From positions 451,011-515,010 of the forward strand of contig CAVSBO010000003.1 in NCBI GenBank assembly GCA_963726195.1: 64,000 bases of DNA, written 5' to 3'. The notes below the pieces were generated by a model. It ran no database searches. It was not told the origin of the DNA and saw only the letters and a program-made list of their open reading frames with translations. The DNA comes from Candidatus Thorarchaeota archaeon. Its GTDB lineage: Archaea; Asgardarchaeota; Thorarchaeia; Thorarchaeales; Thorarchaeaceae. The position numbers and the translations under genes were made by a program. This document shows positions 1 to 34,574 of the stretch, in pieces (positions within the stretch are counted from its first letter, which is position 1; each line of letters begins with the position of its first letter).

Positions 1-1815
1 CAGCTGTTTAGTCCCAAGGTAGTATGTTCTTCGAGCAGCACATCTGTTCAGGTTTGTACGTTAATTGTCAATACTCTCAAAGCCCTGCATATCAACGCAG
101 TTCTCGACACAGCCGACTTCAACACTTACTACATGAACGTCGAATACCACCTTGACTACGACATTCTATTCCATGGTGTGGACTTCGGCACTTTTGACGT
201 GAATTGGCTGGGTTACGACTTCTGGTCTGGCTACATTAACCAGCCGTACTATAACGAACCATGCTGGGCCAATCCGACCTACGATTCGTGGAGAAACCAA
301 TTGCTGCACTCGACGAATCATAGCTTGGTGTACCAAGCAGCTCAAGAAATGCAGAAAATCTGGATATACAACTGCCCAGAGATCATTCTGTACGAGAACT
401 GCTTACTATATGCTTACAGGACCGATAGGTTCGAGGGCTATGTTAACGATGCATTGCATGGTGTGCCCGGTTTCTGGACAGACTACAACGTGCATTTGAA
501 GCAGTCTCAGGGCGGGCCCTTGGGTGGGACATTCCGCTGGAGTCTTCCGCAGGACATTGACACCTTCAACCTAATGGCAAGCAACTTGGCTTACACTTGG
601 GACGTACTGGCCCAGCTGTATGACCCCCTGATTACCACAGACTACCAAGGCAATGATATGCCATGGCTAGCCTCTTCGTGGATTGTTGCTACACATGCTG
701 ATAATGCCTCGGTGCCATCAGGTCATACAAGAATCACCTTCAACATGATCCAGAACGCAACATGGTCCGACGGCCAGCCGTTGACGGCGGATGATGTGGC
801 ATTCAGTCTCAACTTCTACCGAAATGCGTCAGGCAATCCATTTGGGCCATCGCTCGTGGACATGACTGCTGCATATTCAACGTCCACGTATCAGGTCGTA
901 GTCGAGTTCTCAACAGAGTCTTACTGGCACTTACACGACTGTGGGTACCAGTACATAATTCCGAAGCACTTCTTCATCGCCCATGGGATAACTACGAGCA
1001 ACTGGAACAGTTGGAACCCACGACCTCCAACCGACGCGATGGTGACTTCGGGACCATTCTACGTAAGCAACTACGTTGCAGGTGAGTTTTGTGAACTGAC
1101 CCGCAACCCCAACTATTTCTACAAATGTCCCGTGCCACCCGCAGTAGACCATCCGGAAGACCTTGAGTATGAACAGGGACAGACGGGTAACTTCATCATT
1201 TGGCACGCTTCAGGCACGAGTCCCTCAAGCTACTCCATATTCTGGAACGGAAACAGCATCGCTTCGGGTCCCTGGAACACGTCTGGAGAGGTTGTGTACG
1301 TATCGGTTGATGGATTACCTTTGGGAGTCCACAACTTCACAATCAAAGTTACTGATACTGGCGGGCTCTTCGCGACCGATACTGTCTTCGTCACTGTAAT
1401 AGAGGCGGCCGCCCCAATAGTAGATCATCCAGCAGACATTGAATATGAACTGGGACAAACGGGTAACATCATCGTTTGGCATCCTTCAGATATGACCCCA
1501 GCCGCCTATTTCGTGTTCCTCGATGAGAATCTCTCAGCGTTTAGTGTCTGGAAAACATCGGGCGAGGCGATAGCTGTATCGGTCGACGGACTTCCTTTAG
1601 GGATTCACAATTGCACCCTGATGGTCATCGATAGAGGCGGGCTCTTCGCGACTGACACCGTGCTTGTCACGGTGATTCAACCACAGACGACAACAACAAC
1701 TACAACAAATACAACCACTACGCCGACGTTAGATATCCCAGTCATACTAGGCGTTGGTATTGGTCTGGCATGTGTAGCGGTAGTGAGTGCAGTCATTCTT
1801 CGACGCAAATCCTAG
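1..1815 (+). CDS. Extracellular solute-binding protein, ABC family 5 (peptide/nickel type), 5-prime truncated by the window edge; carries two C-terminal tandem Ig-like repeats, a Thr-rich linker and a TM anchor
   Basis: Frame 1 has no stop from nt 1 to the ATG at 133, so the ORF runs off the left edge. Family-5 SBP-like segments are present (ITFNMIQNATWSDGQPLTADDVAFSLNF; GPFYVSNYVAGEFCELTRNPNYF). Two ~90-aa repeats lie at about nt 1141-1410 and 1411-1680. They are followed by a QTTTTTTTNTTTTPT linker, a hydrophobic helix and RRKS. Confidence 0.7.
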   Translation, partial: QLFSPKVVCSSSSTSVQVCTLIVNTLKALHINAVLDTADFNTYYMNVEYHLDYDILFHGVDFGTFDVNWLGYDFWSGYINQPYYNEPCWANPTYDSWRNQLLHSTNHSLVYQAAQEMQKIWIYNCPEIILYENCLLYAYRTDRFEGYVNDALHGVPGFWTDYNVHLKQSQGGPLGGTFRWSLPQDIDTFNLMASNLAYTWDVLAQLYDPLITTDYQGNDMPWLASSWIVATHADNASVPSGHTRITFNMIQNATWSDGQPLTADDVAFSLNFYRNASGNPFGPSLVDMTAAYSTSTYQVVVEFSTESYWHLHDCGYQYIIPKHFFIAHGITTSNWNSWNPRPPTDAMVTSGPFYVSNYVAGEFCELTRNPNYFYKCPVPPAVDHPEDLEYEQGQTGNFIIWHASGTSPSSYSIFWNGNSIASGPWNTSGEVVYVSVDGLPLGVHNFTIKVTDTGGLFATDTVFVTVIEAAAPIVDHPADIEYELGQTGNIIVWHPSDMTPAAYFVFLDENLSAFSVWKTSGEAIAVSVDGLPLGIHNCTLMVIDRGGLFATDTVLVTVIQPQTTTTTTTNTTTTPTLDIPVILGVGIGLACVAVVSAVILRRKS

Positions 1816-2289
1816 CCCGGTGACAAGTACTCGTTGTGTCTGCCCTTGCTACTCTTTCTCTTGAGTCCTCTATTTCAGAAGAAGGACCTTGCGAGGACCC
1901 ACGGTAGTCAGATGACTCTTGGCGAACTAGATCTGTTTCTCTGGTTTCATGTGAACGGAAGCAAGAAAGGATCCAATCGAATCGTCGCATTCTGCCATTG
2001 GGGATTGACCCGTCGTTACGCTCCTGGCGAGCACGAAAGATAAGCGACCCGCAACCATTGTGTCAGCAAACGATATATCCCGGCTGTGCATACGGTCCAG
2101 CTTCACTTAGGTTGCTTTCAATGACAAGCCACCACGTCAATCACTGTGCACGCTCACTGCAACAGGCGTCTCAAACTCATCTTAGAGAAACGAAGACAGC
2201 CTATGAAGGTTAGGAAGGAATACTCTCGTTGCATTCTGATACAAGACACATCAAAGGCAGTATCACATGCTGTGCTCTAGTAGCTCTCT

Positions 2290-5166
2290 TTGCGTTACTG
2301 CTCGCTGCCGTCCCGCCTGCTGCGGCGGCACCTGGCAGCTGATTCTGAGAATTTCACTACCACAACGTACCGAGACACTGGGGCTACGAATGCTACAGGC
2401 TGGGGGAACGGATCAGTCAGGCTTCCCCATAGGGGTCCCGTACTGGTGGCCACCTATGACACGCCCGCGGGTCCGTTTGGGGCAGTGGTGCAAGGAGGCA
2501 TTGCTTATGTCGCAGACAACGTGGGAGGATTGCGGATAATCAACGTGACCAATCCTCGAAACCCGGTCCTATTAGGCAACTGCTCTACGCTCAGCGTGGC
2601 GTTTGGAGTTGCGGTACAGGATGGCATCGCCTATATCGCCAACCAAGTCAAGGGTCTGCAGATAGTCAACGTAACCAATCCTCGAAAGCCTGTGTTGTTA
2701 GGCAATTGCGATACACTGGGCCGTTCAGAATATGTAGCATACAGCGGCGGCTTGGCCTACATCGCTGACTACGACTACGGACTCCAGATATTCAATGTCA
2801 CCAATCCTCATAACCCCGTGCGGATCGGTACATACAACACACCCGGTTTCGCGTTCGGCGTATCTGTGGCAGGAGGCGTGGCTTACGTTGCTGACACTGG
2901 CTCGCTTCTAGCAATCAATGTGACAAACCCACGAAACCCTGTCCTGCTGGGCAGCTACGGCGCGGTCTCCAATGCAATCGAGGTAACGGTATCGGGCTCT
3001 ATCGCGTACGTTGCGAACGGCAATTCGGGGTTGTTGCTGCTCAATGTTACGAATCCTCGACAGCCCGCATTGCTGGGCTCCTGTGATACTCCAGGCACTT
3101 CAGAGGAAGTATACGTGACGGGCGGGTTCGCTTATGTTGCTGACTATTATTCAGGACTTCAAATCATGAATGTTACAAATCCTAAGAACCCAAAGACAGT
3201 GGGCACCTATGACACGCCCGGTATCGCATATGGAGTGACAGTAGCAGGGTCTTACGCTTACGTCTCGGACGAAAGCTCAGGATTGCAGATACTGAACGTT
3301 GCTGACTATGTGACGCCAACTTCGGCTGGCGTGTGTAGCGATCCCCCCTATGCTGATGGAGTGTATGTCGACGGAACATGCGCCTACGTTGTTGCCCATG
3401 ATGATGGACTATACGTGGTCAACGTAACCGACCCCAGAAACCCCGCTGTCCTGGGCCATTGCGCTATCAATGCGTACTCACTTGGCGTATGGGTTGCGGG
3501 CCGGTTTGCGTATGTGGCAAGCTATGGATCATACCCCGATGTTGGCCTGCAAATCGTCAACATCACCGACCCTCGCCATCCGACCATCGTTGCCACCTAT
3601 GGCATGGGCTGGTTTGAGGACGTATGGTCGGACGGGCGCTATGCCTACGCCGTTGGCCCGTACACGGGTAGCAAGGGCATGCTTTCGATTGTCAATGTCA
3701 CGAACCCCAAGAACCCAACGCTTCTGAGTTACTACGTCACGAACGGGACCGCCTTAGGAGTCCACATAGCAGGTCCGATTGCCTACGTAACTGACGCGGG
3801 CCCTGGTTTGTATGTGCTTAACGTTACCAACCCGAGGAAACCCTCTCTCTTGGGCTCCTATGCCTTGCCCCCATCTAGCCTCGGACTTGATGTCTTCGTG
3901 ACCGGCCCCTTTGCGTATGTCGCCGACTATACATCAGGCTTCAGGGTCTTCAATGTCACAGACCCACATCATCCGACCCTCACTGGCTCATATCCCATAT
4001 CCGGGGCATATGGCGTTTGGGTGTCGGGCTCTTTCGCATATGTGGCAGATGAGGACGCAGGTCTGCGAGTCTTCAACGTCACAGATCCCAGGCATCCTGC
4101 TCTCTTGGGCACATATGACACTCCCGGCATTGCATATGATGTATGCGCGGCCGGCGACTATGCGTATGTCGCCGATTACACCCAGGGCTTGAGAGTTGTG
4201 GAAGTCCAGCGTAATCGATGCCGTGAGTTTGAGACTAAGGCCGTAGCTCAGTCCCTGACCGTCTCTTCACCTTCTACCACTGCGCTAGTTGTGAATGCCA
4301 CCCTCACCTCCAGTCAAGGCATCCCGAGCGGCACATCGGTTGCCTACTATCTATCATCAGACGGCGGTGTCAATTGGGAATCAGTGAGTCCCGGAGTTCT
4401 CCACGTCTTCGGTCATATCGAACACGAACTAAGATGGCGGGCAGTCCTGACCACGGGTGATACACTGAAGACGCCAGTAATCAGCAGTCTCTCCATTACC
4501 TATCAAACTCGATTGACAGGTACGACCCTCGCTTCGCCTATTGATGGTAGTGGCAGTAACGACAATACACCCTTGTTGGTCTGGAATGCACTTGCCGGAG
4601 CAAACACCTACCTGCTACAGATTGACACATCAAGCACATTCAACTCGACCAACCTACGCAGTGTGACCGTCGCGAGCACAAGCTACTCTCCAGTCACTCC
4701 CTTGTCGGACGGTACGTGGTACTGGAGAATTGCTGCGAACGACTCGGCAGGTGTTCTGGGTGTCTTCTCTGCAACATGGAGCCTCATTGTCGAGACCGTT
4801 GCACCTACATGGGTGGTCACGCCTGTTTCGCAGACACTGACCTACGGGCAAGCACTGAGTTATCAGCTGCAAGCCTCTGATCCGTCTGGTATCGGCCTGT
4901 GGCAGGTCAACGATACTGCGCACTTTGCTATCAGCTCGGGCGGCCTTCTGACAAATGCAACGACCTTGGCAAGCGGCAGCTATGGTGTCACCGTAACGGT
5001 ATATGACATCTACAACAACCCATTGTCTGTATCCTTTACCATCACGGTCCAGGCTCAGACCACAACGACGACACCTCCGGGCATTCCGTCTACCCTCTAT
5101 TTGGGAATCAGTCTCGGAGCTGTGATAGCAATCATCATAGTGATTCTCCTGCGCCGGAAGGGTTAG
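2290..5166 (+). CDS. LVIVD-repeat beta-propeller surface protein with C-terminal Ig-like region, Thr-rich linker and TM anchor
   Basis: About 16 repeats of the pattern G.AYVAD...GL.I.NVTNPR.P.LLG, which is LVIVD-repeat like. The protein ends in QTTTTTPP, a TM helix and RRKG. The true start is probably the ATG at 2203 (MKVRKEYSR...), but the signal-peptide region reads through two frames. Confidence 0.8.
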   Translation: MRYCSLPSRLLRRHLAADSENFTTTTYRDTGATNATGWGNGSVRLPHRGPVLVATYDTPAGPFGAVVQGGIAYVADNVGGLRIINVTNPRNPVLLGNCSTLSVAFGVAVQDGIAYIANQVKGLQIVNVTNPRKPVLLGNCDTLGRSEYVAYSGGLAYIADYDYGLQIFNVTNPHNPVRIGTYNTPGFAFGVSVAGGVAYVADTGSLLAINVTNPRNPVLLGSYGAVSNAIEVTVSGSIAYVANGNSGLLLLNVTNPRQPALLGSCDTPGTSEEVYVTGGFAYVADYYSGLQIMNVTNPKNPKTVGTYDTPGIAYGVTVAGSYAYVSDESSGLQILNVADYVTPTSAGVCSDPPYADGVYVDGTCAYVVAHDDGLYVVNVTDPRNPAVLGHCAINAYSLGVWVAGRFAYVASYGSYPDVGLQIVNITDPRHPTIVATYGMGWFEDVWSDGRYAYAVGPYTGSKGMLSIVNVTNPKNPTLLSYYVTNGTALGVHIAGPIAYVTDAGPGLYVLNVTNPRKPSLLGSYALPPSSLGLDVFVTGPFAYVADYTSGFRVFNVTDPHHPTLTGSYPISGAYGVWVSGSFAYVADEDAGLRVFNVTDPRHPALLGTYDTPGIAYDVCAAGDYAYVADYTQGLRVVEVQRNRCREFETKAVAQSLTVSSPSTTALVVNATLTSSQGIPSGTSVAYYLSSDGGVNWESVSPGVLHVFGHIEHELRWRAVLTTGDTLKTPVISSLSITYQTRLTGTTLASPIDGSGSNDNTPLLVWNALAGANTYLLQIDTSSTFNSTNLRSVTVASTSYSPVTPLSDGTWYWRIAANDSAGVLGVFSATWSLIVETVAPTWVVTPVSQTLTYGQALSYQLQASDPSGIGLWQVNDTAHFAISSGGLLTNATTLASGSYGVTVTVYDIYNNPLSVSFTITVQAQTTTTTPPGIPSTLYLGISLGAVIAIIIVILLRRKG

Positions 5167-5409
5167 TACAGCACATTTGACCTAAGGTTGAAACGGTCTC
5201 ACAGTTGTGCAAAGGAAGGAAGCCCTACGGGGCTTCCCCTTCATTTTGTTTTGCAGACGCAGAGGGTTTTTGCTACGGTTGACCTGCCATGTCTCTCAAG
5301 GCCGGAGTGGGTTACTCGCTGGACAGAACGAACGTGCCATCAAGCAGCCGAAACCCTCGATACTGTTTTTACCTAGAAGGACCATACCGGGCCCTGTATT
5401 CGCAGGGGA

Positions 5410-7982: not shown

Positions 7983-8948
7983 TTACTTGCCAGGAGCCGC
8001 TAGTTTCGCCTTGAGCTTCTTGAGCATGTCCTTGGTCATGGCTGGCAGGTCGTAGTCCGGCTTCCAACCCCACTCTTTTCTTGCAACGCTGTCATCAATT
8101 GACTTGGGCCACGAGTCAGCTATAGCCTGATGGAAGTCGGGCTTGTAATCGATTTGAAAGTCCGGGATGTTCTTCTTGATTTCGTTGGCCAGCTCTTCCG
8201 GAGTGAAGCTAACGGCGGTTACGTTGAAAGTCCTGTGCACCAGCTTCTTGGCATCCGCTTCGATTAGGTCTATTGTGGACTTGATGCAATCAGGCATGTA
8301 CATCATTGGCAGACGCGTGTCCTTCGAAAGGAACGACGTGTAGCGCTTGTTCTTGATTGCCTCGTAGAAAATGGCGACAGCGTAGTCCGTGGTCCCACCA
8401 CCGGGCAGTGCTTCGGAACTAATGATTCCGGGATAGCGCAAGGATCTGAAGTCCACATTGAACTTGCGAGTGTAGTATTCCCCGAGGAGTTCAATCACGA
8501 CCTTAGTGACTCCGTACATGGTTGTCGGTCTCATAATCACATCATTTGGTGTGTTCTCCCTTGGAGTGCTGGGCCCGAACGCAGCAATCGAGCTCGGAAT
8601 CATCACTTGGCTGAGACCCTGAATTCGTGCGACCTCAAGCACATTGTACGCAGATTGCACGTTCGTTTCCCAAGCTAACTGTGGATTCTGTTCTCCTGCA
8701 GCCGAGAGTATCGACACATTGTGAATGACCACGTTAATATCATAATCGACGATCTTGTTCTGAAGGTCATTCATATCGAGAGCATCGAGCCTGTAGTACG
8801 GACCATCCGCGGTCAAGAGGTCTGGAGCCTTCTTTCGTCCTGTGGCTATGACATTCTCTCCGCCATACTTCTTCCTGAGTGCACCAATGAGCTCGGTCCC
8901 GATTTGGCCGTAGCTGCCAGTGACTAGAACACGCTTCGTCGTCTTCAC
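7983..8948 (-). CDS. tdh: L-threonine 3-dehydrogenase, NAD-dependent epimerase/dehydratase (extended SDR) type
   Basis: VLVTGSYGQIGTEL Rossmann motif. There is full-length similarity to SDR-type TDH, for example YGVTKV, LRYPGIIS, PGGGTTDYAV, RLPMMYMPDC, SFTPEELA and ARKEWGWKP. GTG start. Confidence 0.85.
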   Translation of the reverse strand: MKTTKRVLVTGSYGQIGTELIGALRKKYGGENVIATGRKKAPDLLTADGPYYRLDALDMNDLQNKIVDYDINVVIHNVSILSAAGEQNPQLAWETNVQSAYNVLEVARIQGLSQVMIPSSIAAFGPSTPRENTPNDVIMRPTTMYGVTKVVIELLGEYYTRKFNVDFRSLRYPGIISSEALPGGGTTDYAVAIFYEAIKNKRYTSFLSKDTRLPMMYMPDCIKSTIDLIEADAKKLVHRTFNVTAVSFTPEELANEIKKNIPDFQIDYKPDFHQAIADSWPKSIDDSVARKEWGWKPDYDLPAMTKDMLKKLKAKLAAPGK

Positions 8949-8982: not shown

Positions 8983-9018
8983 CGCGAGATAACGCAGTTT
9001 TAAGTCTTGACATTGGCG
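8983..9018. repeat. Left copy of a perfect 36-bp direct repeat (cgcgagataacgcagttttaagtcttgacattggcg)
   Basis: Identical 36-mer occurs again at 10564-10599. It lies 35 nt upstream of the tdh start and contains a TATA-like TTTTAAG / CTTAAAA core. Confidence 0.95.
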
Positions 9019-10563
9019 ATTTAGTGGTTCATTATCCTGCAGGAGCAAATGGTTGAACCAAATCTACAAAACGATATTACAGAAACATACACTAACTCAC
9101 AAGAAAGCATCTACGGATATTATGGCTATCCTTCTTCGGAAGTTGCCAAGTCCTAGCAAACTGAATGAGAGTTGGATCCTTTCTTTCTTCAACAAATACA
9201 CCACTTTGTTGAGCAAAAAACGATAACAGACATGAATGAAGAAACAAGATAGGATACATCAGATATCCTTTCTATGCCTTTCTCTGAATTCAATCAGAGA
9301 TACACTCACAATACTGGCCAAACCAACTGTCATCAATAGAATACCTATTGATATCTTTGGCACTACAATTGTTGTTGAATTAGATGATGTCGTAGTCGTA
9401 GCTGTGTTTGCCGTTACAACTGGAACAACCGGATAGAGATCCTTGTATAACATTTCATGCGCAGCATCCAAACCTAGCCCCATTCTAATTGCTCCAATGA
9501 GGAAGGTTCCTGCAAAGCAGTCTTTACACAGGATTGAACTTCCTATGATGCCACTGTGAAACACCTTGCCTCTACAATAGCTGTGCTGATATGCAGCTAT
9601 GGGCTCGATTGGTTCGTCAGATGGATTAATGAAATGCCAGTAGCCGATGATTGTAGTATCTGTCATATTCATCAGCTTGTTCTCTTCCCAGCCAATGTAA
9701 CTGTTGTTTATGTACGAACCATAATTGGCACAGATGAATTCACTCAATGGATGCGTAGTATTCGCAATGAAGCCATTATAGTGTTGTTCTATCCAAAACT
9801 TCCAGTATTCAGAACCTACCCAGTTGACATTTTCTTCTGGCCATCTATGATAGACAGACCGCCAAGCACAAGTTCCATTGAATGCCCAACCTTTTCCTTT
9901 TACAAGGCTAAGGTATCCAGTACCATTCGAAGGATAGTAGGCAACTTCTGCTAAGAAGTTACAGGCATCATCAAATACAATAGTACCACCCGTAGCTACA
10001 AACTGCTTGTACTCCATATACTCTTTTAGAGTCACATACTCTGTAAAGCCACAGACCACAACATCATAGTTTCTAGTTCCATTGCTGCTAAGTAGCAGCC
10101 CTCCATCTACATCTCTATCGTCAATGACAGTCCAATTCCCGATTAGTTGAGACAAAACACCCCCACATGTATCTAAAAACCTACCAAGCCCACCGCTAAT
10201 ACCCCAACCAGGTACAATGGTAGTGTTCAACGTATCTAGATTCGTTGTAACATATGTCTGATTATCTTCCTCATGAAGCCGGAAAAAGGTATAGAATGAT
10301 GAATGGTTTATTGGCCAGAAAACAGTATTAGTGAATGTCGGCATTACAAACACAACTCTTGGATTGGATTTACTGAATTCACTACCAATAGCAGTCATGG
10401 GCATAACTGCAATTAGCAGCAGTATTAGTAAGAGGCACTTCTTCGTTTCTTTCCTCCTAAGCATACTATACTCCTCATGTAAAACAGGAGAATATAAGAC
10501 ATAAAAAGAACAAGGCAAAGTATAGTTACTGCACAAGATAATGTTTCGTTAAGTCGCAGACGC
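9019..10563. other. Low-GC single-gene cassette inserted between the two 36-bp repeat copies
   Basis: Hand counts of sample 60-nt lines give about 35-40% GC inside (9241, 10021) against about 53% in the flank (8041). The segment is bounded exactly by the perfect direct repeat. Confidence 0.6.
9259..10464 (-). CDS. Hypothetical secreted glycoprotein with C-terminal Thr/Ser-rich linker and TM anchor
   Basis: The likely start is MLRRKETKKCLLLILLLIAVMPMTAIG (signal-peptide like) at 10464; the track ORF extends to 10536. The protein has many N-x-S/T sequons and ends in TANTATTTTSSNSTT, a TM helix and RERHRKDI. Confidence 0.6.
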   Translation of the reverse strand: MLRRKETKKCLLLILLLIAVMPMTAIGSEFSKSNPRVVFVMPTFTNTVFWPINHSSFYTFFRLHEEDNQTYVTTNLDTLNTTIVPGWGISGGLGRFLDTCGGVLSQLIGNWTVIDDRDVDGGLLLSSNGTRNYDVVVCGFTEYVTLKEYMEYKQFVATGGTIVFDDACNFLAEVAYYPSNGTGYLSLVKGKGWAFNGTCAWRSVYHRWPEENVNWVGSEYWKFWIEQHYNGFIANTTHPLSEFICANYGSYINNSYIGWEENKLMNMTDTTIIGYWHFINPSDEPIEPIAAYQHSYCRGKVFHSGIIGSSILCKDCFAGTFLIGAIRMGLGLDAAHEMLYKDLYPVVPVVTANTATTTTSSNSTTIVVPKISIGILLMTVGLASIVSVSLIEFRERHRKDI

Positions 10564-10599
10564 CGCGAGATAACGCAGTTTTAAGTCTTGACATTGGCG
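10564..10599. repeat. Right copy of the perfect 36-bp direct repeat
   Basis: Identical to 8983-9018. It lies 100 nt upstream of the cassette gene start (minus strand) and 128 nt upstream of the ATPase gene start (plus strand). Confidence 0.95.
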
Positions 10600-10726
10600 G
10601 GGTCCGGCTGATATGACAAACTAACGTTCCAGAAACGACCAGACACGAAGAACTGGAGGAAATTGGAGTGCAACGCGGGTTGCGCTATTGATACGTTTTA
10701 ATATACTCACGAGGAGGTGAAAGGCG

Positions 10727-11824
10727 TTGATATCAGTGCCGAAAGGTGACACACTTCTCAAAGTGGAGAATCTCAAGGCATACTACGCATCGAAGAAGGG
10801 ACTCGTCCGTGCTGTGGACGACGTTAGCTTTGTTATCCGCGAGGGCGAGTGTGTTGGTCTGCTGGGGGAGAGTGGTTGCGGAAAGACCAGTCTTGCACTT
10901 TCCATAATGGGTTTCTTCGAAAGAGTTGCTCGCTTTGCGGCCGGAACTTCCGACTCGAGTTTACGTCGGCAGTTCGACAATGTTCCCAAGGGGCAGAGCG
11001 AAGATAGACCAGGGGTACAGGGCAAGGTCTTCTTCAGGGGCGTCGAACTGACAAGCCTTCCAGAAGAGGAATTCGTCAAACTAAGGGGCCGAGAGATATC
11101 CATGATTCCCCAAGGGCTTGGCCATGCTCTCAACCCGATGTTCAGCGTTGGAATGCAGACTGGCGAGCCCGTTCAGATTCATGAAGAGCAGGTCAGGCTA
11201 ATTGAACTGAAGAAGAAGGTCTTGGAGTACTTGGCATCGTCCGACTCGGGGATGCAGCGGACTAGGCTAGTGCAAGATCCGGCTTGCTTCAGCGGAGGAG
11301 AGGCTCAGAGAATCCTCATTGCCATGTCACTAATCGCTGGACCGTATCTGGTGATCGCTGATGAGCCAACATCAGCACTTGATGTTACAATCCAGCACCA
11401 GATACTGAACGTGCTCAGAATGATCAGAGACGAATTCGCTGTCTCTCTGTTTTTGATTAGCCATGATGCAGGTGTTGTTGCGGAGCTCGCCGATAAGGTT
11501 GCAGTGATGTACGCAGGCAAGATTATGGAGCTCGGAGATGCCATTCAGATGTTCCACCATCCATCTCACCCATATACAATGGGATTAATGGCGTCCTACC
11601 CGACAATTGCCATGATGCGGATGAAAGCCGGTGGCAAGCGGCCTATACTCAGAGGGATTAGGGGAGACCCACCGGATCTCACTGCTGTCCCTGCGGGCTG
11701 CCCCTTTCATCCTCGCTGCAATTACGTAGTCGACAAATGCAAATCACAGATACCTGAATACAGGGAGGCGGAGTCCGGCCACTGGATACGTTGTCATCGC
11801 TGGGGCGAGATTGAAAGAGAATAG
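10727..11824 (+). CDS. Oligopeptide/dipeptide-type ABC transporter ATP-binding protein, orphan copy
   Basis: Walker A GESGCGKT, Q-loop MIPQG, signature FSGGEAQR, Walker B LVIADEPTSALD, H-loop ISHD, and an Opp-type C-terminal Cys motif (GCPFHPRC). Confidence 0.8.
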   Translation: MISVPKGDTLLKVENLKAYYASKKGLVRAVDDVSFVIREGECVGLLGESGCGKTSLALSIMGFFERVARFAAGTSDSSLRRQFDNVPKGQSEDRPGVQGKVFFRGVELTSLPEEEFVKLRGREISMIPQGLGHALNPMFSVGMQTGEPVQIHEEQVRLIELKKKVLEYLASSDSGMQRTRLVQDPACFSGGEAQRILIAMSLIAGPYLVIADEPTSALDVTIQHQILNVLRMIRDEFAVSLFLISHDAGVVAELADKVAVMYAGKIMELGDAIQMFHHPSHPYTMGLMASYPTIAMMRMKAGGKRPILRGIRGDPPDLTAVPAGCPFHPRCNYVVDKCKSQIPEYREAESGHWIRCHRWGEIERE

Positions 11825-13056: not shown

Positions 13057-14364
13057 ATGGCACATGAAAGGGATGATACAACGTCGACCAAATATGCATT
13101 CGATAAGGAGGCCATCGAACGCTTTCAGAAGAAGGTGGGGGTCAACATCGAACTCAATACAGAGCAAACGGCCGCAATAGAAAACAGCTTCCAGACAACT
13201 CTGCAGATAGGACAGATTGCAGGAATTGTCCGGTCTCTCTGCCCGACCTCTCAGTCGCTGTTCAGGTTTGTAGAAAGTGGTACGGCCGAACTACAACCGA
13301 TATCCCTGTCCTTGTTTGTTCTCAACGAGGATACGTGGAGACTCATGCAAAAAAAGAGAGACCACCAGACGAACATGCTTCCTATGTTGACAATCCCATG
13401 GTTCTATTGGGAACCGGCGGCAAAATCAAGGACGAACCCTTTGGGTGTACGACGCGACACGCACGGTCAACTCGGCACGTCAGTGCTTGAGGACAAGAGC
13501 CGCATGGTGTTCAGCGGGACCGGGGGCAACTTCGCAGGACTGATTGAGGGGAGGATCGTCCAAAGGTTGACAGGAATGCGGCCGGTCTTTCTTCCGGGGG
13601 CCGTGGGTGAACGAGAGAAGGTGCCACACTACGAATGTCAGCGTCTGCAAATCACGGTCGATCCTTCCGAATCGGAATGCGCTCTCTATCCAGTACCTGA
13701 CAGGAGACTTGACTTCAGATTCTCTGAGAGTCCGAAGGTATTCCACGAACATGGATTGAGGATAGACTGTGCAAATGCCAGCGTTCATCTCCGGGTCGGA
13801 GCAAATCCTGAAACAGTACTACGAGGCGAGACCAAGATTCTCATAGGCAAAACCCCAGTTTCGGCCCAAGACTCTGAAAGCACCCTTGGTTTTCATGTTT
13901 GGCTCAATGCTGTCGAACGGGCGATGTCACTGAGCGGTGGAGGTCCGAAGCCCGTTCTCAAGTTCGTGAGAAGACGCTCACTCAGTTTGAAGGATTCGTC
14001 GACGGCAGACCTTTTGCTGTTCTCTCTGCCAATTCATACTCCAGATGTGGTCGCGAGCAACGCAAACAGGATAGCGAACAAGAGCACAAAGACAGAAGAT
14101 ACCAGTACTTGCCTGCCGACCACTGCATGCCTCCAAGCTGTGGTAGGTTTGCCCGAACTGTCATATCGTTGTTCATCGACAAGCGGCTGGCGAGCCATCA
14201 GGCAGCCCCCAACAATGAGCATGCCACCAAACTCAACAGTGAGAGCATTGGAAACTATCAAGAATACTGACACACCCGCAAAGGCGAAGAGAAGGATAAA
14301 ACCCAGAAGGAGATCAACCACGACGATGACGGAGGATACTGCAATGGCCTCAAAAACGAACTGA
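13057..14364 (+). CDS. Hypothetical protein; 3-prime third doubtful
   Basis: Long ORF with no motif I recognise. After about 13980 it becomes low-complexity and overlaps a hydrophobic ORF on the opposite strand. Confidence 0.35.
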   Translation: MAHERDDTTSTKYAFDKEAIERFQKKVGVNIELNTEQTAAIENSFQTTLQIGQIAGIVRSLCPTSQSLFRFVESGTAELQPISLSLFVLNEDTWRLMQKKRDHQTNMLPMLTIPWFYWEPAAKSRTNPLGVRRDTHGQLGTSVLEDKSRMVFSGTGGNFAGLIEGRIVQRLTGMRPVFLPGAVGEREKVPHYECQRLQITVDPSESECALYPVPDRRLDFRFSESPKVFHEHGLRIDCANASVHLRVGANPETVLRGETKILIGKTPVSAQDSESTLGFHVWLNAVERAMSLSGGGPKPVLKFVRRRSLSLKDSSTADLLLFSLPIHTPDVVASNANRIANKSTKTEDTSTCLPTTACLQAVVGLPELSYRCSSTSGWRAIRQPPTMSMPPNSTVRALETIKNTDTPAKAKRRIKPRRRSTTTMTEDTAMASKTN

Positions 14365-24487: not shown

Positions 24488-24584
24488 CGCTGATAAAGAA
24501 TGGCCGCCTATTTTAAGATGTATCGGAAGTCACGTCATGGCGTTGTCGTTCGCGTCATGCGTGACTCCGACGTGAAAGAAGAGA

Positions 24585-24743
<159 letters not shown>

Positions 24744-24853
24744 CTAGGGGGCGCCCTTCAAGCGTTAAGGAAGCGTTAAGGTAAAGAGAGTTAACAACCC
24801 TCGCAACAGTCAATACCCAAAGAACCGAGAGGTGTCCAAGGCTTCGGGGTGAC

Positions 24854-26731
24854 GTGATGTCGGAGGAGCGCTACAGGGCAAACGCGATACTAATCATGAT
24901 TGTGCTGCAAATAGCTTCTATATCGTTGATTCAACTGGGGCTGGGCGCAGTCCTGAGCAAGCCAGGCAGCACCGTAGACCAGCAGAGGATTATTGTCATC
25001 CCTGTATACTTCCCTGATTGCGGACCCAGCACATCGATAGACACGTTCATCCAGAGAATGTCGAAGGTCGCAGACTACTACACAGAGTGCTCCTATTCTC
25101 AGGTTTCGATAACAAGCGACGTTCTGGGTTGGGTCGAACTTGATTCGCCCATGCTCTCCTATGCTCAAACACAGACCATGGGCGAAGTCAACCATACTCC
25201 CGCGCAGGGACGAATCTTCACCGAAGCCATAGCAAAAGTCGACTCGCAAGTGAACTTCCTCTACTATGACAGGCTCATACTGGTCCACTCGGGACCCGGG
25301 GCAGATGCGAAGAACTACTCGCTCATAGGAACCTGCAACGTGCCGGGCTGGTATGCAACCAGTGACGGCAGGGGCTTCACCAAGGCTTCGATCGTATCGG
25401 AATACGATGAATTTGGCACGATTGCACATGAACTCGGGCACGATTTCGGGGCTCCAGACCTATACGACTACTACGCCAAGAATGCTGACATCACAGGACT
25501 CTATCGATGGGACATAATGAGTTCAGGCAGCTACAACGGAAACCCCATGGGTTCCATGCCTGCTCACATGAGTACTTTCACCAAGCTTCGCACAGGCTGG
25601 ATTCACCAGAACGAAATCTACAACCTCTCAAACGGCACTCTCAGAATCAATCTTGTACCACTCAGTGTGCAGGGGAATGGGTTCAGGGCACTCCGATACG
25701 ACCTGCCAGATGGCCGTTATTATTTGGTGGAATCGAGGAGCCGAGTGGGATTCGACCAAGGATTGCCCGGAGAAGGTGTGCTGGTCATGCTCGTCGACGA
25801 ATCACTGATTGTTCGGAATAGAGATGCCGTTCGGTTGCAGGTTCCCCCGTTCGCAGAAGGTCTCTGGAATGCGGAGCTGAAAGAAGGCGAATCTTTCAGT
25901 GACTCGAATAGCTCCTTTGTTGTTCGGGTTCTGAAGTGGACTACAGACTTGGCCACCGTTGTCGTGGGCACCGACCTCAGGCAGGATTGGGCCGTTTGCG
26001 ATAGGATTGGGCTCCCAGTGGGGCTAGACGTTAATGGAGTGGTGGTCACGACAGCACATGCGGACGCGTGGTTGCCGGCGACAACGACTTTCGCCGCTGT
26101 CAGTCTCTCGAACCACACATACTCTTGGTTCAATGTGTACTCCTCGAATGATTCAGGGAGAGACTGGGTACTAAAGTTCAGTACGGCAGGTTCGGGCTAT
26201 GGGATTAGCATGTATAGACTCACGGTAACCTACTATGAATGTAACGTGATTTTCGCAGGTTGGATAGGGGTCCTCAATAGTTGGCAGGCGGGTGTCTTGC
26301 TCTATAACCTCGGCTCAAAGACCTTCGGGTTCTCAAACCTTAGCTTGCTAGTGCCCGGCCTATTCATCTCGTCCGTTGCCGCATGTGCTTCGGTGGACAC
26401 TTACTACATGTGTTGTTCGGGAGGTCTCAATGGGACTAGGGGTCTTGCCTACGTCAGGTTAAGACAAGCACAGTGGAACTACACATGGGTACCAATACCA
26501 GATGTCCTTGACGCGAAGGTTAGCAACCCTCCTACTTACAACGGCATTCCTTACGTCCTGTATCAAGACGGCAACAAGCATCTAAGACTTGTTCGGTTCA
26601 ACGAAACATCTGTTCTAGTTTCCTTCGACGCGCTCTATGACGGCACGCGCGATTTCGACTTGGTTTCTTCACCCAGCAGGTTGTTGATTGCGTACCACGA
26701 TGGATCCGAGAACGAGAACAAATCGAATTGA
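24854..26731 (+). CDS. M6-family (immune inhibitor A-like) metalloprotease domain protein, N-terminal part
   Basis: N-terminal TM/signal segment, and a zinc motif in the M6 context: TIAHELGHDFGAPDLYDYY. A long beta-rich C-terminal region follows. Confidence 0.7.
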   Translation: MMSEERYRANAILIMIVLQIASISLIQLGLGAVLSKPGSTVDQQRIIVIPVYFPDCGPSTSIDTFIQRMSKVADYYTECSYSQVSITSDVLGWVELDSPMLSYAQTQTMGEVNHTPAQGRIFTEAIAKVDSQVNFLYYDRLILVHSGPGADAKNYSLIGTCNVPGWYATSDGRGFTKASIVSEYDEFGTIAHELGHDFGAPDLYDYYAKNADITGLYRWDIMSSGSYNGNPMGSMPAHMSTFTKLRTGWIHQNEIYNLSNGTLRINLVPLSVQGNGFRALRYDLPDGRYYLVESRSRVGFDQGLPGEGVLVMLVDESLIVRNRDAVRLQVPPFAEGLWNAELKEGESFSDSNSSFVVRVLKWTTDLATVVVGTDLRQDWAVCDRIGLPVGLDVNGVVVTTAHADAWLPATTTFAAVSLSNHTYSWFNVYSSNDSGRDWVLKFSTAGSGYGISMYRLTVTYYECNVIFAGWIGVLNSWQAGVLLYNLGSKTFGFSNLSLLVPGLFISSVAACASVDTYYMCCSGGLNGTRGLAYVRLRQAQWNYTWVPIPDVLDAKVSNPPTYNGIPYVLYQDGNKHLRLVRFNETSVLVSFDALYDGTRDFDLVSSPSRLLIAYHDGSENENKSN

Positions 26732-27704
26732 CACGCTTCAAGTCTACTTCGGGAGCACGGAAGCGGGCTTTGCACGAATCCTCGTCCGCGAGAGTACCCA
26801 GAACTTCGCACTTGAGGGGCTATGCTACAAGAATCAGACTGACACCTTTTACCTTACGAGCCGGCACGGGGACAACTTGACGCAGTATCAAATCAAGGAT
26901 GGGGTCGCTCTGGCATATTCCCGCAATGTCACTAGTCCAAGTACGGTTATGTCGAAATGGGACGTCACTCACAGCAACTTTCCTCTCGTAGTGGGCTACC
27001 AATACGGAAAGACCAACGTCAGCTCAGTCCTTTGGTTAGCAGTTCCGGGCATCTCTGGTAACGAGGTCATCTTCTATATGGGGCCCGCAGTCGTGACTGC
27101 CCCTTACCTTCAATTGATTCCTGTGCTAGTCCTCGGTGGGATACTCATTCCTTCTGTTGCTTTGTACAGGAGCCAAGGTAGGAGACGATGGCTCGTTAGC
27201 ACTGCCCGACGACTCAAGCAAGGTACTGTGCTCGGGGTCGCGGACTTGACCAAACCGTATGAAAGATACCTTGTTCCATGGCGATACCAAGTGCTAATCA
27301 TAGCAACTGGTCTCATCACGCTTAACGTAGCATTGGTTATGCCTTTTCTGACCGAATCTCTTGGCTCAGTCCTGATGATTCCCTTCGTAATCCTCCATGA
27401 ACTCAGTGGCCAAGAGGCTTTGGCAGGAGTGTTTGTTTCGGCTGCGGCGGTTCTGTTGCCTCTGTCTGGCCTTGGCCAATCTTCGTCAGCTTGGTTGTCA
27501 CGGTGTCAGAGACTTCTAATCGTGCTCTTTGGACTAACGCTAGTCGTCTATGGCATTCTCGGGGGTCTGAACATCGCTGTAACGCTGTTGATTCTCTCGG
27601 CCATAGTCTACTTGCTCCTGATAGTGGTTGGCGGGGTTCCACTTTTGATGACAGAGATTGCCGTGAAGATAATCTGTGACGACTTGCCGGATACTGCTCA
27701 ATAG
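26688..27704 (+). CDS. Probable continuation of the M6 protease gene: extracellular region followed by a multi-TM C-terminal domain
   Basis: It overlaps the previous ORF by 44 nt in another frame, and a sensible fusion reading exists across about 26720. There are 5 or more hydrophobic helices after aa 140. Confidence 0.5.
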   Translation: MRTTMDPRTRTNRIDTLQVYFGSTEAGFARILVRESTQNFALEGLCYKNQTDTFYLTSRHGDNLTQYQIKDGVALAYSRNVTSPSTVMSKWDVTHSNFPLVVGYQYGKTNVSSVLWLAVPGISGNEVIFYMGPAVVTAPYLQLIPVLVLGGILIPSVALYRSQGRRRWLVSTARRLKQGTVLGVADLTKPYERYLVPWRYQVLIIATGLITLNVALVMPFLTESLGSVLMIPFVILHELSGQEALAGVFVSAAAVLLPLSGLGQSSSAWLSRCQRLLIVLFGLTLVVYGILGGLNIAVTLLILSAIVYLLLIVVGGVPLLMTEIAVKIICDDLPDTAQ

Positions 27705-27921
27705 TGATGCCCTAGTCTCGGTCCTGACAAGGATGGTGCTTGGTCTTTGATTCGAAAAACGTGTCGCCCAGCACCCGATGCATTTCAGTTGTTTCACAGA
27801 TCGGACCAGTGTTTGGCGTTTTCATCAACAGGAATGGTAGACATCACCTCATCTTTCGTCGGGACCGTGCATACAGATGTGTAGAATCCTCTCGCTCGCA
27901 AAAGCATAGAGAAAAATCCTT

Positions 27922-28404
27922 ATGGTTCTATTCCCGAATGAGGAAATCCTCCAAATGGACATTGTGCGATTGGGCAGAGGAATTTCATCGAACCTAGCTG
28001 TATTAGGAGTCTCGTTCCTTGCCAGCGGGGGCATTCTGGTCCTATTGTTTTGGCTGGGCATCTGGTCATTCCCGACTACCTATGAGACCGACCTGTACGT
28101 GGTCACAGTCTTCTTCGTTGGCCTTGTCGCTGCGGCTCTCGGCGGCTGCTTCTGGGGGATTTACAGCATTGAGGAGTACTTGGAATTCCGGAGACTGGCA
28201 CGGCTTATAGACCGAGCCGAGCAATCGAAAACAGCGGATCTAAGCCTGAGTCCCGCTCTCTTGCTCGACACGGTGGACAGGGAGCCTCTGCACACGGTCC
28301 AAGAGGCTGGTGGAGATGTCTTGTCCATAAGGAATCAAATGAAGAACCGTGCTCTAGCCCTCAATCCTGAGGAACTGAGAACAAAGAGTCGCCGGACTTC
28401 TTAA
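27922..28404 (+). CDS. 2-TM membrane protein with a cytoplasmic C-terminal tail
   Basis: Helices LAVLGVSFLASGGILVLLFWLGIW and VVTVFFVGLVAAALGGCFWGIY. Its stop is 7 nt before the next gene. Confidence 0.5.
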   Translation: MVLFPNEEILQMDIVRLGRGISSNLAVLGVSFLASGGILVLLFWLGIWSFPTTYETDLYVVTVFFVGLVAAALGGCFWGIYSIEEYLEFRRLARLIDRAEQSKTADLSLSPALLLDTVDREPLHTVQEAGGDVLSIRNQMKNRALALNPEELRTKSRRTS

Positions 28405-28411
28405 CTTAAAG

Positions 28412-28897
28412 ATGGTTCAAATCTACGAGAAGAGAATCGGACTGACCCCCATGGAACATGAGGCGATAAGCACCCCATCGGCTGTGTTTACGTCTAGAGT
28501 ACCCACTCGCGTGCGCCAATATCTCTACGAAGCCAAGCGCGATCTATTTCGCGAGAACTGGGGTCAGTGCGTGCTCGATACTCACAAGGCAATTGAAGCT
28601 GCCTACAAACAGCTGATTGCAGAGGCCAGCGAGAGAGATCAGGAAATCCGAGGAACCGTAGAAGAGCTGAAGAGAAAAAGAACACCTATTGACACGAGCA
28701 CAGCCGGGCAGCTACACCATCTCATGGTGGAAATGAAACAGCTGAAACGTGATAAGCTAGAATACTGGCTGAGCAAGGAAGTAACACAATACCGCCCAAG
28801 GGCACACGATGTCGAACACAGCGGAGCCTTTTCTCCCGAAGATGCTTGTCGTTGTGAGCTCTACACGGGTATTCTAATGAGAATCCTCTACGCCTAG
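28412..28897 (+). CDS. HEPN-like (DUF4145-like) small protein
   Basis: All-helical composition. The R-x5-H motif RAHDVEH is followed by SPEDA....L..ILMRILY, the layout of HEPN/DUF4145 domains. Confidence 0.45.
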   Translation: MVQIYEKRIGLTPMEHEAISTPSAVFTSRVPTRVRQYLYEAKRDLFRENWGQCVLDTHKAIEAAYKQLIAEASERDQEIRGTVEELKRKRTPIDTSTAGQLHHLMVEMKQLKRDKLEYWLSKEVTQYRPRAHDVEHSGAFSPEDACRCELYTGILMRILYA

Positions 28898-29286
28898 AGT
28901 TTTGCTGCCAGCCATGCCACTCTCAAATAACAGAGTGGCTTTTCGGAGATGTGTGTAGTAGTTTATAAAACCGAGCCAACAATGAGTAAACAAGGAGCCG
29001 ATGGGCAGTTCTCCAGCAGGAAACAGTCCAACCACCGGTTCCTCGTTGCACCGGGTCGAATCCCGCACCCAACGGAGTGTTCGGCCCTATGCAACTCCGT
29101 TCTCGTCTCATTATATAAACAACCCAGTGAGACATGACATTACGTTAAGTGGCCGCCCTATGGGTGTTCCGTTTCCAAACCGATTGGCAAGAACTACTTG
29201 AGAACATCTGATGATTTCGCATCTGTAGGCGTTTAATAGCGGATACAATAGTAGTACCCTGGGTCATTCTTCGTGGTCATTCAACC

Positions 29287-29697
29287 TCAGCCAAACCGGA
29301 TTGGCACATGATACCGCCTCCGTCTTTCCTCCTCCTGTGACACCTCTCTGACAATGTCTGAGTACGTCTGCAGATTCTGAGCCATGGGAAGCAAACGGGT
29401 CCGGTATTTGTTGGCGCTCAGCCCAGAATAGACAAAATGCGCCCACAAGAGGGCCATGAGCGCAAACAGCGCGATGAAAACGTAATACGACAGCACATCC
29501 CCACCTAGTAGTCTTTCTCCTTGGCCAATCAAGAAAGAAATGAGCCCGAGGAGCAAAAGCATAACCAGCGATGGGACATCAAGCCCATAGAGAATTCCGG
29601 CGGAGACCCAACCGGGTCCATCAAGCCAGCTTCTCTTCTTTCTGCGGTCAACATATCCCAGGCTGCATCGGCCTTCTCTTCCACAAGTGAGCCACAT
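29287..29697 (-). CDS. Multi-TM membrane protein, C-terminal part of a split gene
   Basis: Helices VSAGILYGLDVPSLVMLLLLGLISFLIG and VLSYYVFIALFALMALLWAHFVY. It overlaps 29529-30095 in another frame. Confidence 0.45.
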   Translation of the reverse strand: MWLTCGREGRCSLGYVDRRKKRSWLDGPGWVSAGILYGLDVPSLVMLLLLGLISFLIGQGERLLGGDVLSYYVFIALFALMALLWAHFVYSGLSANKYRTRLLPMAQNLQTYSDIVREVSQEEERRRRYHVPIRFG

Positions 29698-30095
29698 CCC
29701 AATGCTAAGATTTCGGCAGCGAATATGAAAAGCACTACTGCAAAAATGACAGGCAGTTCGGATTCAGTTAGAGGAAGGGGATGCAGAAAAATCAGGGCAA
29801 TGAACATCGCGAGGATCATAAGGCTGCCTGAAGGAATGCCGACCAATAGGAAGCGCCAGAATGTCTTGACGAGAAGCAGTCTCACTTCTACTGCATCTTT
29901 CAAGTCCGCATAGGCGCGAATGAAAAGGACGTATCCAGTGGCGATCCCCAGGAAGATACGTACGTAGTCCCCGAGTCCCAAGAGCCACCAGAATGCGGAA
30001 ACAAAGGTCATGATTGCGACAGACCAGTTGGCTTCCTTGTCCAACCTCACTAGTTCCTCGTTGTTGACCTGTTTACGAAGAATCTCACGCAACAC
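29529..30095 (-). CDS. Multi-TM membrane protein, N-terminal part
   Basis: Four hydrophobic helices and a GTG start. The first 46 nt overlap the end of the upstream 118-aa gene. Confidence 0.5.
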   Translation of the reverse strand: MLREILRKQVNNEELVRLDKEANWSVAIMTFVSAFWWLLGLGDYVRIFLGIATGYVLFIRAYADLKDAVEVRLLLVKTFWRFLLVGIPSGSLMILAMFIALIFLHPLPLTESELPVIFAVVLFIFAAEILALGCGSLVEEKADAAWDMLTAERREAGLMDPVGSPPEFSMGLMSHRWLCFCSSGSFLS

Positions 30096-30406
30096 CAGTT
30101 AGGATTAACGTCAATCGCGTCGCGTATCAGCCTGGTTGTATCAAGGGTGTGCCAATTGGATGTTACGACCTCGACTCTCATTGGCCCTTGACGACTACCC
30201 GATAGATGGACCGCCAGCTGGCGGTCCTCCCAAGTCCATGTGCAAATTGGCCGTGAGTATCCGTTGTTCCGTACGGCTGGCTGAGGCCGCTCTACGGGAC
30301 AACCGAGTTCACCACAGAATATGCGAAGAAGACTAGCGTAGCTTTCCATGACATCAAAGATGTCCTCATCATCCTTTGCATGATTCACAGCTTTGATAGA
30401 TGCCAT
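30050..30406 (-). CDS. Hypothetical small cytoplasmic protein, first gene of a two-gene minus-strand unit
   Basis: ORF with normal composition, translationally overlapping the downstream membrane gene. No motif recognised. Confidence 0.4.
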   Translation of the reverse strand: MASIKAVNHAKDDEDIFDVMESYASLLRIFCGELGCPVERPQPAVRNNGYSRPICTWTWEDRQLAVHLSGSRQGPMRVEVVTSNWHTLDTTRLIRDAIDVNPNWCCVRFFVNRSTTRN

Positions 30407-31011
30407 TGCCCCTTGCTCAGAAGAAGACTACTAGACGCTAAGACAACTGGATACGCTCGCCTATTTCTGTTTTGCCGCTCATGACCAGTACGATACCATG
30501 TGAGCATACCGGAAGGCAACAGGCTCTGAAATGCGTCCGGCCAATTCGGTTCTCGTGTCTTGACACCAACCTAGGTTCGGCGATTACACTGCTGGTCTTG
30601 GCCACGCTTTGGTTCTCGCCTTATCTGGCATTCCAATTCAAACGGCGGAGATTTACGGACACATCTTTCTTTGCTTTGTCCTCGCCAATCTCCATGGAGT
30701 TGTCTGGTCGGGAAATCATTAACGACGACGTGACCCAGCTTCTTGAGGCCCTCGGACGTTCAGCCGGGAAAAGACACAACAGAGTCCGACAGTTGAGTCG
30801 GAGCGGCCGAACACCCATCTACGCAGCAATCCACAAAGAACCCGTCTCTTGCCTGAGCGACTATCATCCACTTGGAAGTTCAGAATAGGTGAGGATGACT
30901 ACATAATAAGGCCAGATTGGACATCCTCCACGGAAGGCATCTATGTCGCTGCAAAGGTTTATCATCAATACACCATGAAGACGATGTGACTGAGGACGAT
31001 ATCGCACCTCA

Positions 31012-31641
31012 ATGTTTCGCAATCGGGGGCCAATACAGGTGATTGTAGAATCGATAAGAGTGCAGAATTTTCGATCGATAAGGGACCAGACTCTTGCACT
31101 CGACGAACTAACGATGCTTGTGGGTCCTAATGGCGCGGGGAAGTCTTCGTTTCTGAAGGCCCTGAACCTCTTTCATACTCCAAGTGCAGCCTACAACGAG
31201 GACGATTTCTACAACAAGGATAGCAGCAGAGAGATTGTCACAGCTGTAACATTCGGCTGCCTGACCACCGTAGAGAAGGAATTGTTCCGCAAATACGTTG
31301 AGGGCGACAAACTGACAGTTGAAAAGGTGATGACTTGGCCCAAAGACCGAACGAGTCAGAAGTATCACGGATCCAGATTGATGAATGAAGAGTTCAGCCA
31401 GTTCAGGAAGGCAACCGGCCAAAGTCTCAGAGCGGAGTACAACAAGCTCCGCGAGGGTAAGTACAAACACTCCCCGGCCTACACAAACAAGGAAGACGCT
31501 GAGCAATCATTACAGAGTGGGAGAGTTCCAATCCAACCAACTGTACGAGACAACGGGACGATGGTCAGTTCTTTGGCTTCAAGGAGGTTGGGACTGCGCA
31601 TCTTGAACGATTCTGGAGGTACATATTCGTTCCGGCCGTGA
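31012..31641 (+). CDS. OLD-family ATPase/TOPRIM nuclease, fragment 1 (Walker A region)
   Basis: IESIRVQNFRSIRDQTLALDELTMLVGPNGAGKSSFLKAL is a typical AAA_15/OLD N-terminus. Confidence 0.7.
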   Translation: MFRNRGPIQVIVESIRVQNFRSIRDQTLALDELTMLVGPNGAGKSSFLKALNLFHTPSAAYNEDDFYNKDSSREIVTAVTFGCLTTVEKELFRKYVEGDKLTVEKVMTWPKDRTSQKYHGSRLMNEEFSQFRKATGQSLRAEYNKLREGKYKHSPAYTNKEDAEQSLQSGRVPIQPTVRDNGTMVSSLASRRLGLRILNDSGGTYSFRP

Positions 31642-31782
31642 GAGATGCCTCAGAAGACGCGCAGGAAAGCAAGGACAGCCCCCTAACTGAGATTATGAAC
31701 CTCGTAGTAAGAAGCGTGTTGCAGAGTCGAAAGGAGATACAACTACTAAAGGAGCGAACTGAGCTCAGACTACAATGCTATA

Positions 31783-33531: not shown

Positions 33532-34574
<1,043 letters not shown>

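Follow-up and report, generated by a model that had tools for sequence, protein, structure and literature searches.

Restriction-modification (RM) gene complexes were reportedly found by Nobusato et al. in 2000 (Gene 259:99) to enter bacterial genomes by 'insertion with long target duplication'. Since then the footprint has been known but not its mechanism, and the discussion has treated it as a trait of selfish RM genes in bacteria. Duplications of the target made by DNA transposons, insertion sequences (IS), miniature inverted-repeat transposable elements (MITEs) and casposons have a fixed, short length (2-15 bp) and go together with terminal inverted repeats and multiple copies; casposons, integrated by the Cas1 integrase, have such inverted repeats and duplicate 14-15 bp. 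Here we analyse a long duplication in a 64,000-nt stretch of DNA from an Asgard archaeon of the Thorarchaeota (the window, in whose coordinates positions are given unless a contig is named). Between tdh, the gene for an L-threonine 3-dehydrogenase, and a divergent gene for an ABC-type ATPase, a perfect 36-bp direct repeat brackets a GC-poor insert with a single gene. The source genome (G000, 2.92 Mb) is a metagenome-assembled genome (MAG) with a completeness of 88.9% and a contamination of 3.9%. It was compared with the other three species of its genus (G001, G002 and G003) and with metagenome contigs from four different samples (L071-L074).

The class of insertions with long target duplication was established with bacterial RM genes and is marked by a repeat >30 bp, an insert <20 kb, the absence of mobility genes and a unique repeat that aligns to a single-copy empty site; the repeats range from 46 to >400 bp, compared with up to 19-26 bp for the duplications of IS1630, and no archaeal case survived the screen (Furuta, Abe & Kobayashi 2010, NAR 38:2428, PMC2853133). 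All of these structural features are seen at the thorarchaeal locus, which has a 36-bp repeat, seven empty sites, an insert of 1545 bp, two copies of the repeat in the genome and no transfer RNA (tRNA) gene. It is also like the members of the class in that the insert is small and compositionally deviant, that the repeat lies over a gene boundary or regulatory region and leaves the neighbours intact, and that the length of the repeat varies between events (here 36 and 42 bp). It is unlike them in its host, an Asgard archaeon, and in its cargo, a putative surface glycoprotein instead of an RM system. The case is thus an archaeal, non-RM addition to a mechanistically unexplained class, and it is unusually clean, with a perfect repeat, seven empty sites and an un-ameliorated composition.

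The original prediction, made from the letters of the window, placed the repeat at 8983-9018 and 10564-10599, and the two copies of CGCGAGATAACGCAGTTTTAAGTCTTGACATTGGCG are indeed identical (36/36, 0 mismatches). Their identity ends sharply, since the bases flanking the copies differ on either side. No third copy with up to 3 mismatches is present in the window (shuffles matching, 0/100), and the genome-wide search proposed with the prediction returned exactly 2 copies in 2.92 Mb. A common dispersed intergenic motif, which had been named as one finding that would speak against the prediction, was therefore rejected; in addition to these 2 genomic copies, none was found in public contig collections. 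The block between the copies (9019-10563, minus strand; 1545 bp, or 1581 bp together with one repeat) is as AT-rich as claimed, with a GC content of 0.40 compared with 0.508 in the window and 0.512 in the genome. Among the exact direct repeats found genome-wide (>=16-20 bp, spacing 0.15-40 kb), this is the sole pair that brackets a compositionally deviant block, and nearly all other pairs lie within paralogous genes.

The insert is present once in the genome, and its only gene is an intact open reading frame (ORF) for a 401-aa, predicted secreted and membrane-anchored protein (9259-10464, minus strand). The GC content at third codon positions (GC3) of this cargo gene is 0.39, lower than that of the flanking genes (0.57-0.64) and of homologues from congeners (0.47-0.60). 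In a search of 5.8 billion proteins the best homologue had 61% identity; a partial copy in G002 has 63%. In a phylogenetic tree the cargo falls within a fully supported, genus-restricted clade of nine sequences, where its terminal branch measures 0.67 substitutions per site compared with 0.05-0.12 for the other members. The GC3 contrast with the neighbours, a closest homologue that is just 61-63% identical and the seven empty sites all bear out the claim of a foreign insertion.

Relatives without 9019-10599 had been suggested as a check, and seven were found (G001, G002, G003 and L071-L074). In each of them tdh and the ATPase gene are directly divergent and have one copy of the element between them, with a spacing of ~200-340 bp in G001, G002 and G003. 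When 9019-10599 is taken out, the window aligns colinearly to all seven relatives. The closest relative found is L071, with 99% amino-acid identity in tdh and ~86% nucleotide identity over the region. Its single copy differs from the 36-mer at 4/36 positions, and that of G002 at 7/36. Since the two copies in G000 are identical while those of the relatives have diverged, the duplication is much younger than the species splits. The insertion is recent and lineage-specific, with one gain in the lineage of G000 as by far the more parsimonious course.

No hallmark of a known mobile element was found among those looked for. The insert lacks terminal inverted repeats, and none of its ORFs matches Pfam or PHROGs. 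Neither the insert nor the site contains a tRNA or a match to an Rfam family, and a tRNA or other RNA gene as the insertion target was rejected on these grounds. No integrase, transposase or other mobility gene lies within ~10 kb, where the genes are metabolic or involved in transport. In the whole genome there is no Cas1 (PF01867; the control genomes were positive), one match to a Tyr recombinase (PF00589) on another contig (C17), and one to a Ser recombinase (PF00239) at C3:855244, 395 kb away. The locus resembles DNA transposons, IS elements, MITEs and casposons in that its insert is flanked by a target-site duplication; however, the duplication of 36 bp, the single copy and the absence of inverted repeats, transposase and Cas1 set it apart from them, and an origin as transposon, MITE or casposon was rejected. 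With the tRNA-targeting elements of the pNOB8/SSV type and their remnants it shares direct repeats of tens of bp, foreign low-GC DNA and a site-specific look, but here there is neither an integrase gene nor a tRNA or conserved target, and the 1.5 kb hold one non-mobility gene. The non-coding ends of the insert showed no similarity to the rest of the genome or to homologous loci that would suffice for a claim. Element ends common to homologous cassettes were also considered; the best candidate, 31/47 near the downstream ends, was reached by 6/300 shuffles and is too weak.

Because of the alignment of intergenic blocks across the relatives, the 36-mer can be identified as the conserved tdh-proximal element. 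On the tdh side the conserved block reads ..CAAyGTyAAGACTTAAAAC..TCTCGCGCAGGG.., and within the element AAGACTTAAAAC is invariant in 8/8 sequences (G000 and the seven empty-site relatives). On the ATPase side the conserved block is ..GTATATTAAA..GTATCAATAGCGCAA.., of which the TATA block GTATATTAAA is kept in the relatives. The TATA-like word of the 36-mer lies 55-60 nt ahead of the tdh start codon. By its conservation, the repeat is the putative core promoter of tdh, comprising a TATA-like box with flanks of ~15 bp and extending from roughly -45 to -10. The left copy (8983-9018), with TTTTAAG at 8998-9004 (CTTAAAA on the minus strand), is 34 nt from the tdh start (8948), and the right copy (10564-10599), with its TATA-like core at 10579-10585, is 99 nt upstream of the ATG of the cassette gene (10464), in line with the distances claimed. 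The proposal that each minus-strand gene possesses its own copy of the promoter also stands, as the element is conserved upstream of tdh in 8/8 sequences and both genes hold one copy. The bidirectional promoter that had been proposed stands in part: the intergenic region is divergent, but the 36-mer is not shared, the ATPase gene having a conserved TATA-like box of its own. That box, TTTTAATATA at 10696-10705, lies 95 bp from the 36-mer element and is not duplicated.

The insert may carry further signals. Its 5' non-coding part (10465-10563, minus strand) contains the TATA-like words CTTTTTAT (from 10502-10509) and CTTATATT (from 10492-10499), together with a Shine-Dalgarno-like GAGGAG at 10473-10478 on the minus strand, and is possibly the cassette's own promoter and ribosome-binding site. 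About 40 nt past the cassette stop, a terminator-like region (9181-9220, minus strand) consists of an inverted repeat (9181-9196 / 9205-9220) that overlaps an oligo-T at 9215-9220. This predicted hairpin with its oligo-T should end the transcripts of the cassette before the tdh promoter copy.

Genes of the genus-specific cargo clade occur at four different loci. Apart from the tdh promoter in G000 (locus a), they are found between the genes for the primase large subunit and a zinc-ribbon protein in G001, G003 and L038 (locus b; the two genes are adjacent in G000), in G003 and L036 between a GNAT gene and the gene upstream of it (locus c; adjacent in G000 and G002), and, in the G002 lineage (L037), in an array of small cassettes separated by repeats that resemble the 3' half of a tRNA (locus d). 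At locus c, the Logan contig SRR9617951_359961 (L036) has a direct repeat of 42 bp whose copies are 90% identical (891-932 / 3304-3345 of the contig; 0/300 shuffles reached its score) around an insert of 2371 bp, with a GC content of 0.465 compared with 0.52-0.56 in the flanks. Included in the repeat are the stop codon of the gene upstream and the TATA-like element of the putative GNAT promoter. The cassette is co-oriented with the downstream gene, and the duplication ends ~30 nt ahead of the downstream start codon. Empty sites for this locus are present at G000:C4:250172-250309 and in G002:C17 (L070), while in G003 (C103, L004) the left repeat copy has decayed past recognition. From these sequence features we take L036 as another event, older and independent of the first, that left the same footprint: a ~40-bp duplication centred on a TATA-like box. 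No such duplication is detectable at loci b and d. Flanking repeats as a general trait of the protein family were rejected, as they are significant in the G000 locus only (30 loci, 86 genomes of the taxonomic family). A 157-aa ORF in the L036 insert, considered as the remnant of a mobile element (D5 primase), is actually a small zinc-ribbon protein.

Locus b is represented by L005 (G001:C32) and L010 (G003:C3), where the clade gene is on the opposite strand, and by L038. In the empty site of G000 (C13:30688-30893) the two neighbouring genes are ~50 bp apart, and the zinc-ribbon protein ends differently at its C-terminus. G000 itself has an array with tRNA-like repeats on contig C10 (~4700-26700; L033, L034). 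It contains at least 11 same-strand copies of a ~45-bp repeat that resembles a tRNA 3' half (..CCCTGAGACCGGTCGTTCAAATCGACCCCCCGCTACCA), each preceded by a variable hairpin, and the cassettes between them (0.8-4.8 kb) encode cytidine deaminases, an HNH protein, a DNA methylase and unknowns. Within this array ARAGORN finds no tRNA, and there is no integrase; its appearance is that of an integration hot spot or of a cassette array lacking an integrase.

The explanation that we favour, with moderate confidence, is the insertion of 1545 bp of foreign DNA with a long, 36-bp target duplication of the putative tdh core promoter, independently of a recombinase. A fragment with one complete gene and its own candidate ribosome-binding site and terminator entered the 206-bp tdh-ATPase intergenic region. 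This linear or circular fragment would have been attached by two illegitimate joins, 36 bp apart, either through a staggered break with subsequent fill-in or, at a replication fork, through joins to the two sister duplexes. Selection would keep those events that leave both neighbours with promoters and do not cut off tdh. With the left copy tdh would stay under its native promoter, and with the right copy a transcript would start ~90 nt before the cassette ATG, such that the incoming co-oriented gene would gain a promoter; the ATPase promoter would be untouched by the insertion. Copying of the target is favoured over an att site because the repeat is the local, species-specific form of a fast-diverging intergenic sequence, and a 36-bp att on the element would need to have originated at exactly this site. 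The different lengths of the repeats (36 and 42 bp) fit a duplication of variable length. The original prediction had left the choice between a target-site and an att duplication; on the features of the locus, a long duplication of the target, made with no dedicated recombinase, is the more likely of the two.

Several points weigh against a recombinase-independent target duplication. The joining mechanism, like the transcriptional consequences, is inferred. The promoter function of the repeat is read from conservation and position. A 29-mer from the repeat had no match in public contig collections, and look-ups of the exact tdh and cassette proteins of the window had no hit either. The assembly also includes low-complexity stretches that are almost certainly assembly or sequencing artefacts, namely ~1.4 kb of poly-T then poly-C at C8:114800-116200 and ~2.7 kb of purine-rich sequence with poly-A runs >100 nt at C3:394000-396700. 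In addition, 36 bp is a normal length for a perfect repeat at an att site. Finally, the closest homologue of the cargo lies in an array of the C10 type, in the G002 lineage (L037), and from the cassette arrays the genus clearly has a site-specific system acting in trans.

The last two points are those of a different explanation, integration of the att or Campbell type, which deserves serious thought even though we consider it rather unlikely. A 1581-bp circle, consisting of the cassette and one 36-mer, would have recombined with the chromosomal 36-mer through a site-specific recombinase supplied in trans or through homologous recombination, and the two copies would be attL and attR. The length of the repeat is typical of att sites, a close homologue of the cargo is found among the cassettes of a genus that has an integrase-less array with ~45-bp tRNA-like repeats, and perfect direct repeats would permit excision of a circle. 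However, the 36-mer is a local form of a fast-diverging sequence (4/36 differences from the nearest relative, 7/36 from G002), so that the sole possible source of the circle is this site in this species, and the first insertion is left without an explanation. There is no integrase in or near the insert. The repeat has no similarity to the tRNA-like array repeat, of which no remnant was found inside the insert either, and neither insert nor repeat was found elsewhere in the genome, in public contig collections or in IMG/VR. A robust core common to this site and that of L036 is probably also lacking: the G000 repeat matches the left copy of L036 at 20/25 positions (1/5000 shuffles), but the right, ancestral-like copy gives p ~0.24, and one matching base in the left copy is a late lineage-specific substitution, as seen by comparison with L004. 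The motif TTAAGT-N-TTGACATTG, considered as a target common to both sites, is probably due to chance in view of this late substitution and of the dissimilarity of the other copy; it is also rare, with 4 hits in the genome.

An assembly artefact, with a GC-poor block misassembled into the contig, is very improbable. The source is an incomplete and slightly contaminated MAG (88.9% and 3.9%, as above) with gross low-complexity artefacts on C8 and C3, but a chimeric join does not yield an exact 36-bp target duplication at both junctions. Moreover, the insert is a complete, intact gene from a genus-specific clade, with a candidate ribosome-binding site and terminator, and the independent, older insertion of a homologue has the same footprint in a different assembly and sample. 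Hardly credible at all is an ancestral cassette that the seven relatives lost when the repeats recombined precisely: with perfect direct repeats such a deletion could restore the exact empty site, but at least four independent precise losses would be needed across the genus, for which reason one gain is favoured, the un-ameliorated composition (GC3 0.39) contradicts a long residence, and the repeats are identical though between species the element differs by 11-19%.

A wider version of the target-duplication account, promoter-directed gene capture in Thorarchaeota and perhaps in archaea generally without an element-encoded recombinase, we regard as doubtful. Foreign DNA would be joined at the edges of the segment occupied by TBP and TFB (roughly -50 to -10), and this segment would then be duplicated; the resident gene would keep its promoter, and an incoming co-oriented gene would be expressed from the first generation. 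The two independent insertions of the cargo clade fit this pattern: their duplications, 36 and 42 bp long, each have a TATA-like box at the centre and stop ~30-34 nt short of the start codon downstream.

The cargo had been described as a secreted, membrane-anchored glycoprotein, and the features of the protein agree with this: a hydrophobic, signal-like N-terminus, 11 N-X-S/T sequons and a Thr/Ser-rich linker, with one transmembrane helix followed by a basic tail at the C-terminus. It is probably an extracellular, membrane-anchored and N-glycosylated protein. There is no significant match in Pfam; PF20254 (DMFA2_C) scores 15.3 bits with the query compared with a cut-off of 27, while 15/20 homologues match this family weakly (best E 1.3e-8). 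A search of the PDB by sequence gave no match. An AlphaFold model of the cargo has a mean pLDDT of 82, and its top Foldseek matches are 8huy and 6lve/6lvb (E 1e-7 to 1e-8, TM ~0.45-0.49), the large subunits of N-acetyl-beta-phenylalanine acylase and dimethylformamidase, as well as the GH42 middle domain and ThuA-like proteins, a set that shares the class-I-glutamine-amidotransferase-like fold. The model supports a class-I-glutamine-amidotransferase-like / ThuA-like fold for the extracellular domain, related to the C-terminal domain of dimethylformamidase. Neither the sequence features nor the fold search gave a hint of a function that acts on DNA. Since the cargo cannot cut DNA, insertion driven by a nuclease of the cargo cannot apply here. 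A viral origin was considered and rejected, with no relative in IMG/VR and no PHROG match. The family is seen in Asgard archaea only and is patchy, with members in 22/86 genomes of the taxonomic family.

With an Asgard host and a cargo unable to cut or join DNA, the locus points to a process at the level of the host, such as repair or replication. This single case shows that the cargo of a long target duplication need not be a nuclease; the mechanism is not revealed by the case alone. Such insertions would offer a compact archaeal genome a route to gain a single gene, by which the neighbour is not silenced and the newcomer is given a promoter. Across four congeneric species the cargo clade is found at four different loci, which suggests that cell-surface proteins turn over rapidly in Thorarchaeota, a point of relevance to virus-host interactions and to the shaping of Asgard genomes by horizontal gene flow.

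Of the two neighbours, tdh (7983-8948, minus strand; Pfam Epimerase) is the resident gene with the duplicated promoter and encodes an L-threonine 3-dehydrogenase of the SDR type. The name used in the original prediction is justified by full-length matches to solved L-threonine 3-dehydrogenases (6jyg, E 3e-115; 2yy7, 2e-101; 3a1n, 4e-95), with E values of 1e-95 to 1e-123 overall, though no NCBIfam model reached its cut-off with the tdh protein. The orthologues in congeners are 86-99% identical. The gene on the other side (10736-11824, plus strand) encodes an orphan ATPase of the OppD/F type (Pfam ABC_tran and oligo_HPY; OppD-like in NCBIfam). Its ORF was listed from TTG 10727; in G002 the matching TTG lies in another frame, and GTG 10736 has an ATG as its counterpart. 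From this alignment GTG 10736 (MPKGDTLLKV..) is more likely to be the start than TTG 10727, in which case the leader from the TATA-like box at 10696-10705 would be very short.

Some other features were observed in the remainder of the window. A 435-aa ORF without a Pfam match (13057-14364, plus strand) lies between GNAT genes and an opp operon. Gene order in 62-5363 differs from that in L071:4221-7458, the closest relative: an LVIVD-propeller gene stands between the genes for a family-5 solute-binding protein and a saccharopine dehydrogenase in G000, and beyond the binding-protein gene in L071. The genome-wide repeat scan also returned an exact 29-bp repeat pair at G000:C3:475605 and 484549 (24595 and 33539 in the window; region 24559-33645). 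This pair marks an 8.9-kb accessory island, which places two repeat-bracketed insertions <25 kb apart.

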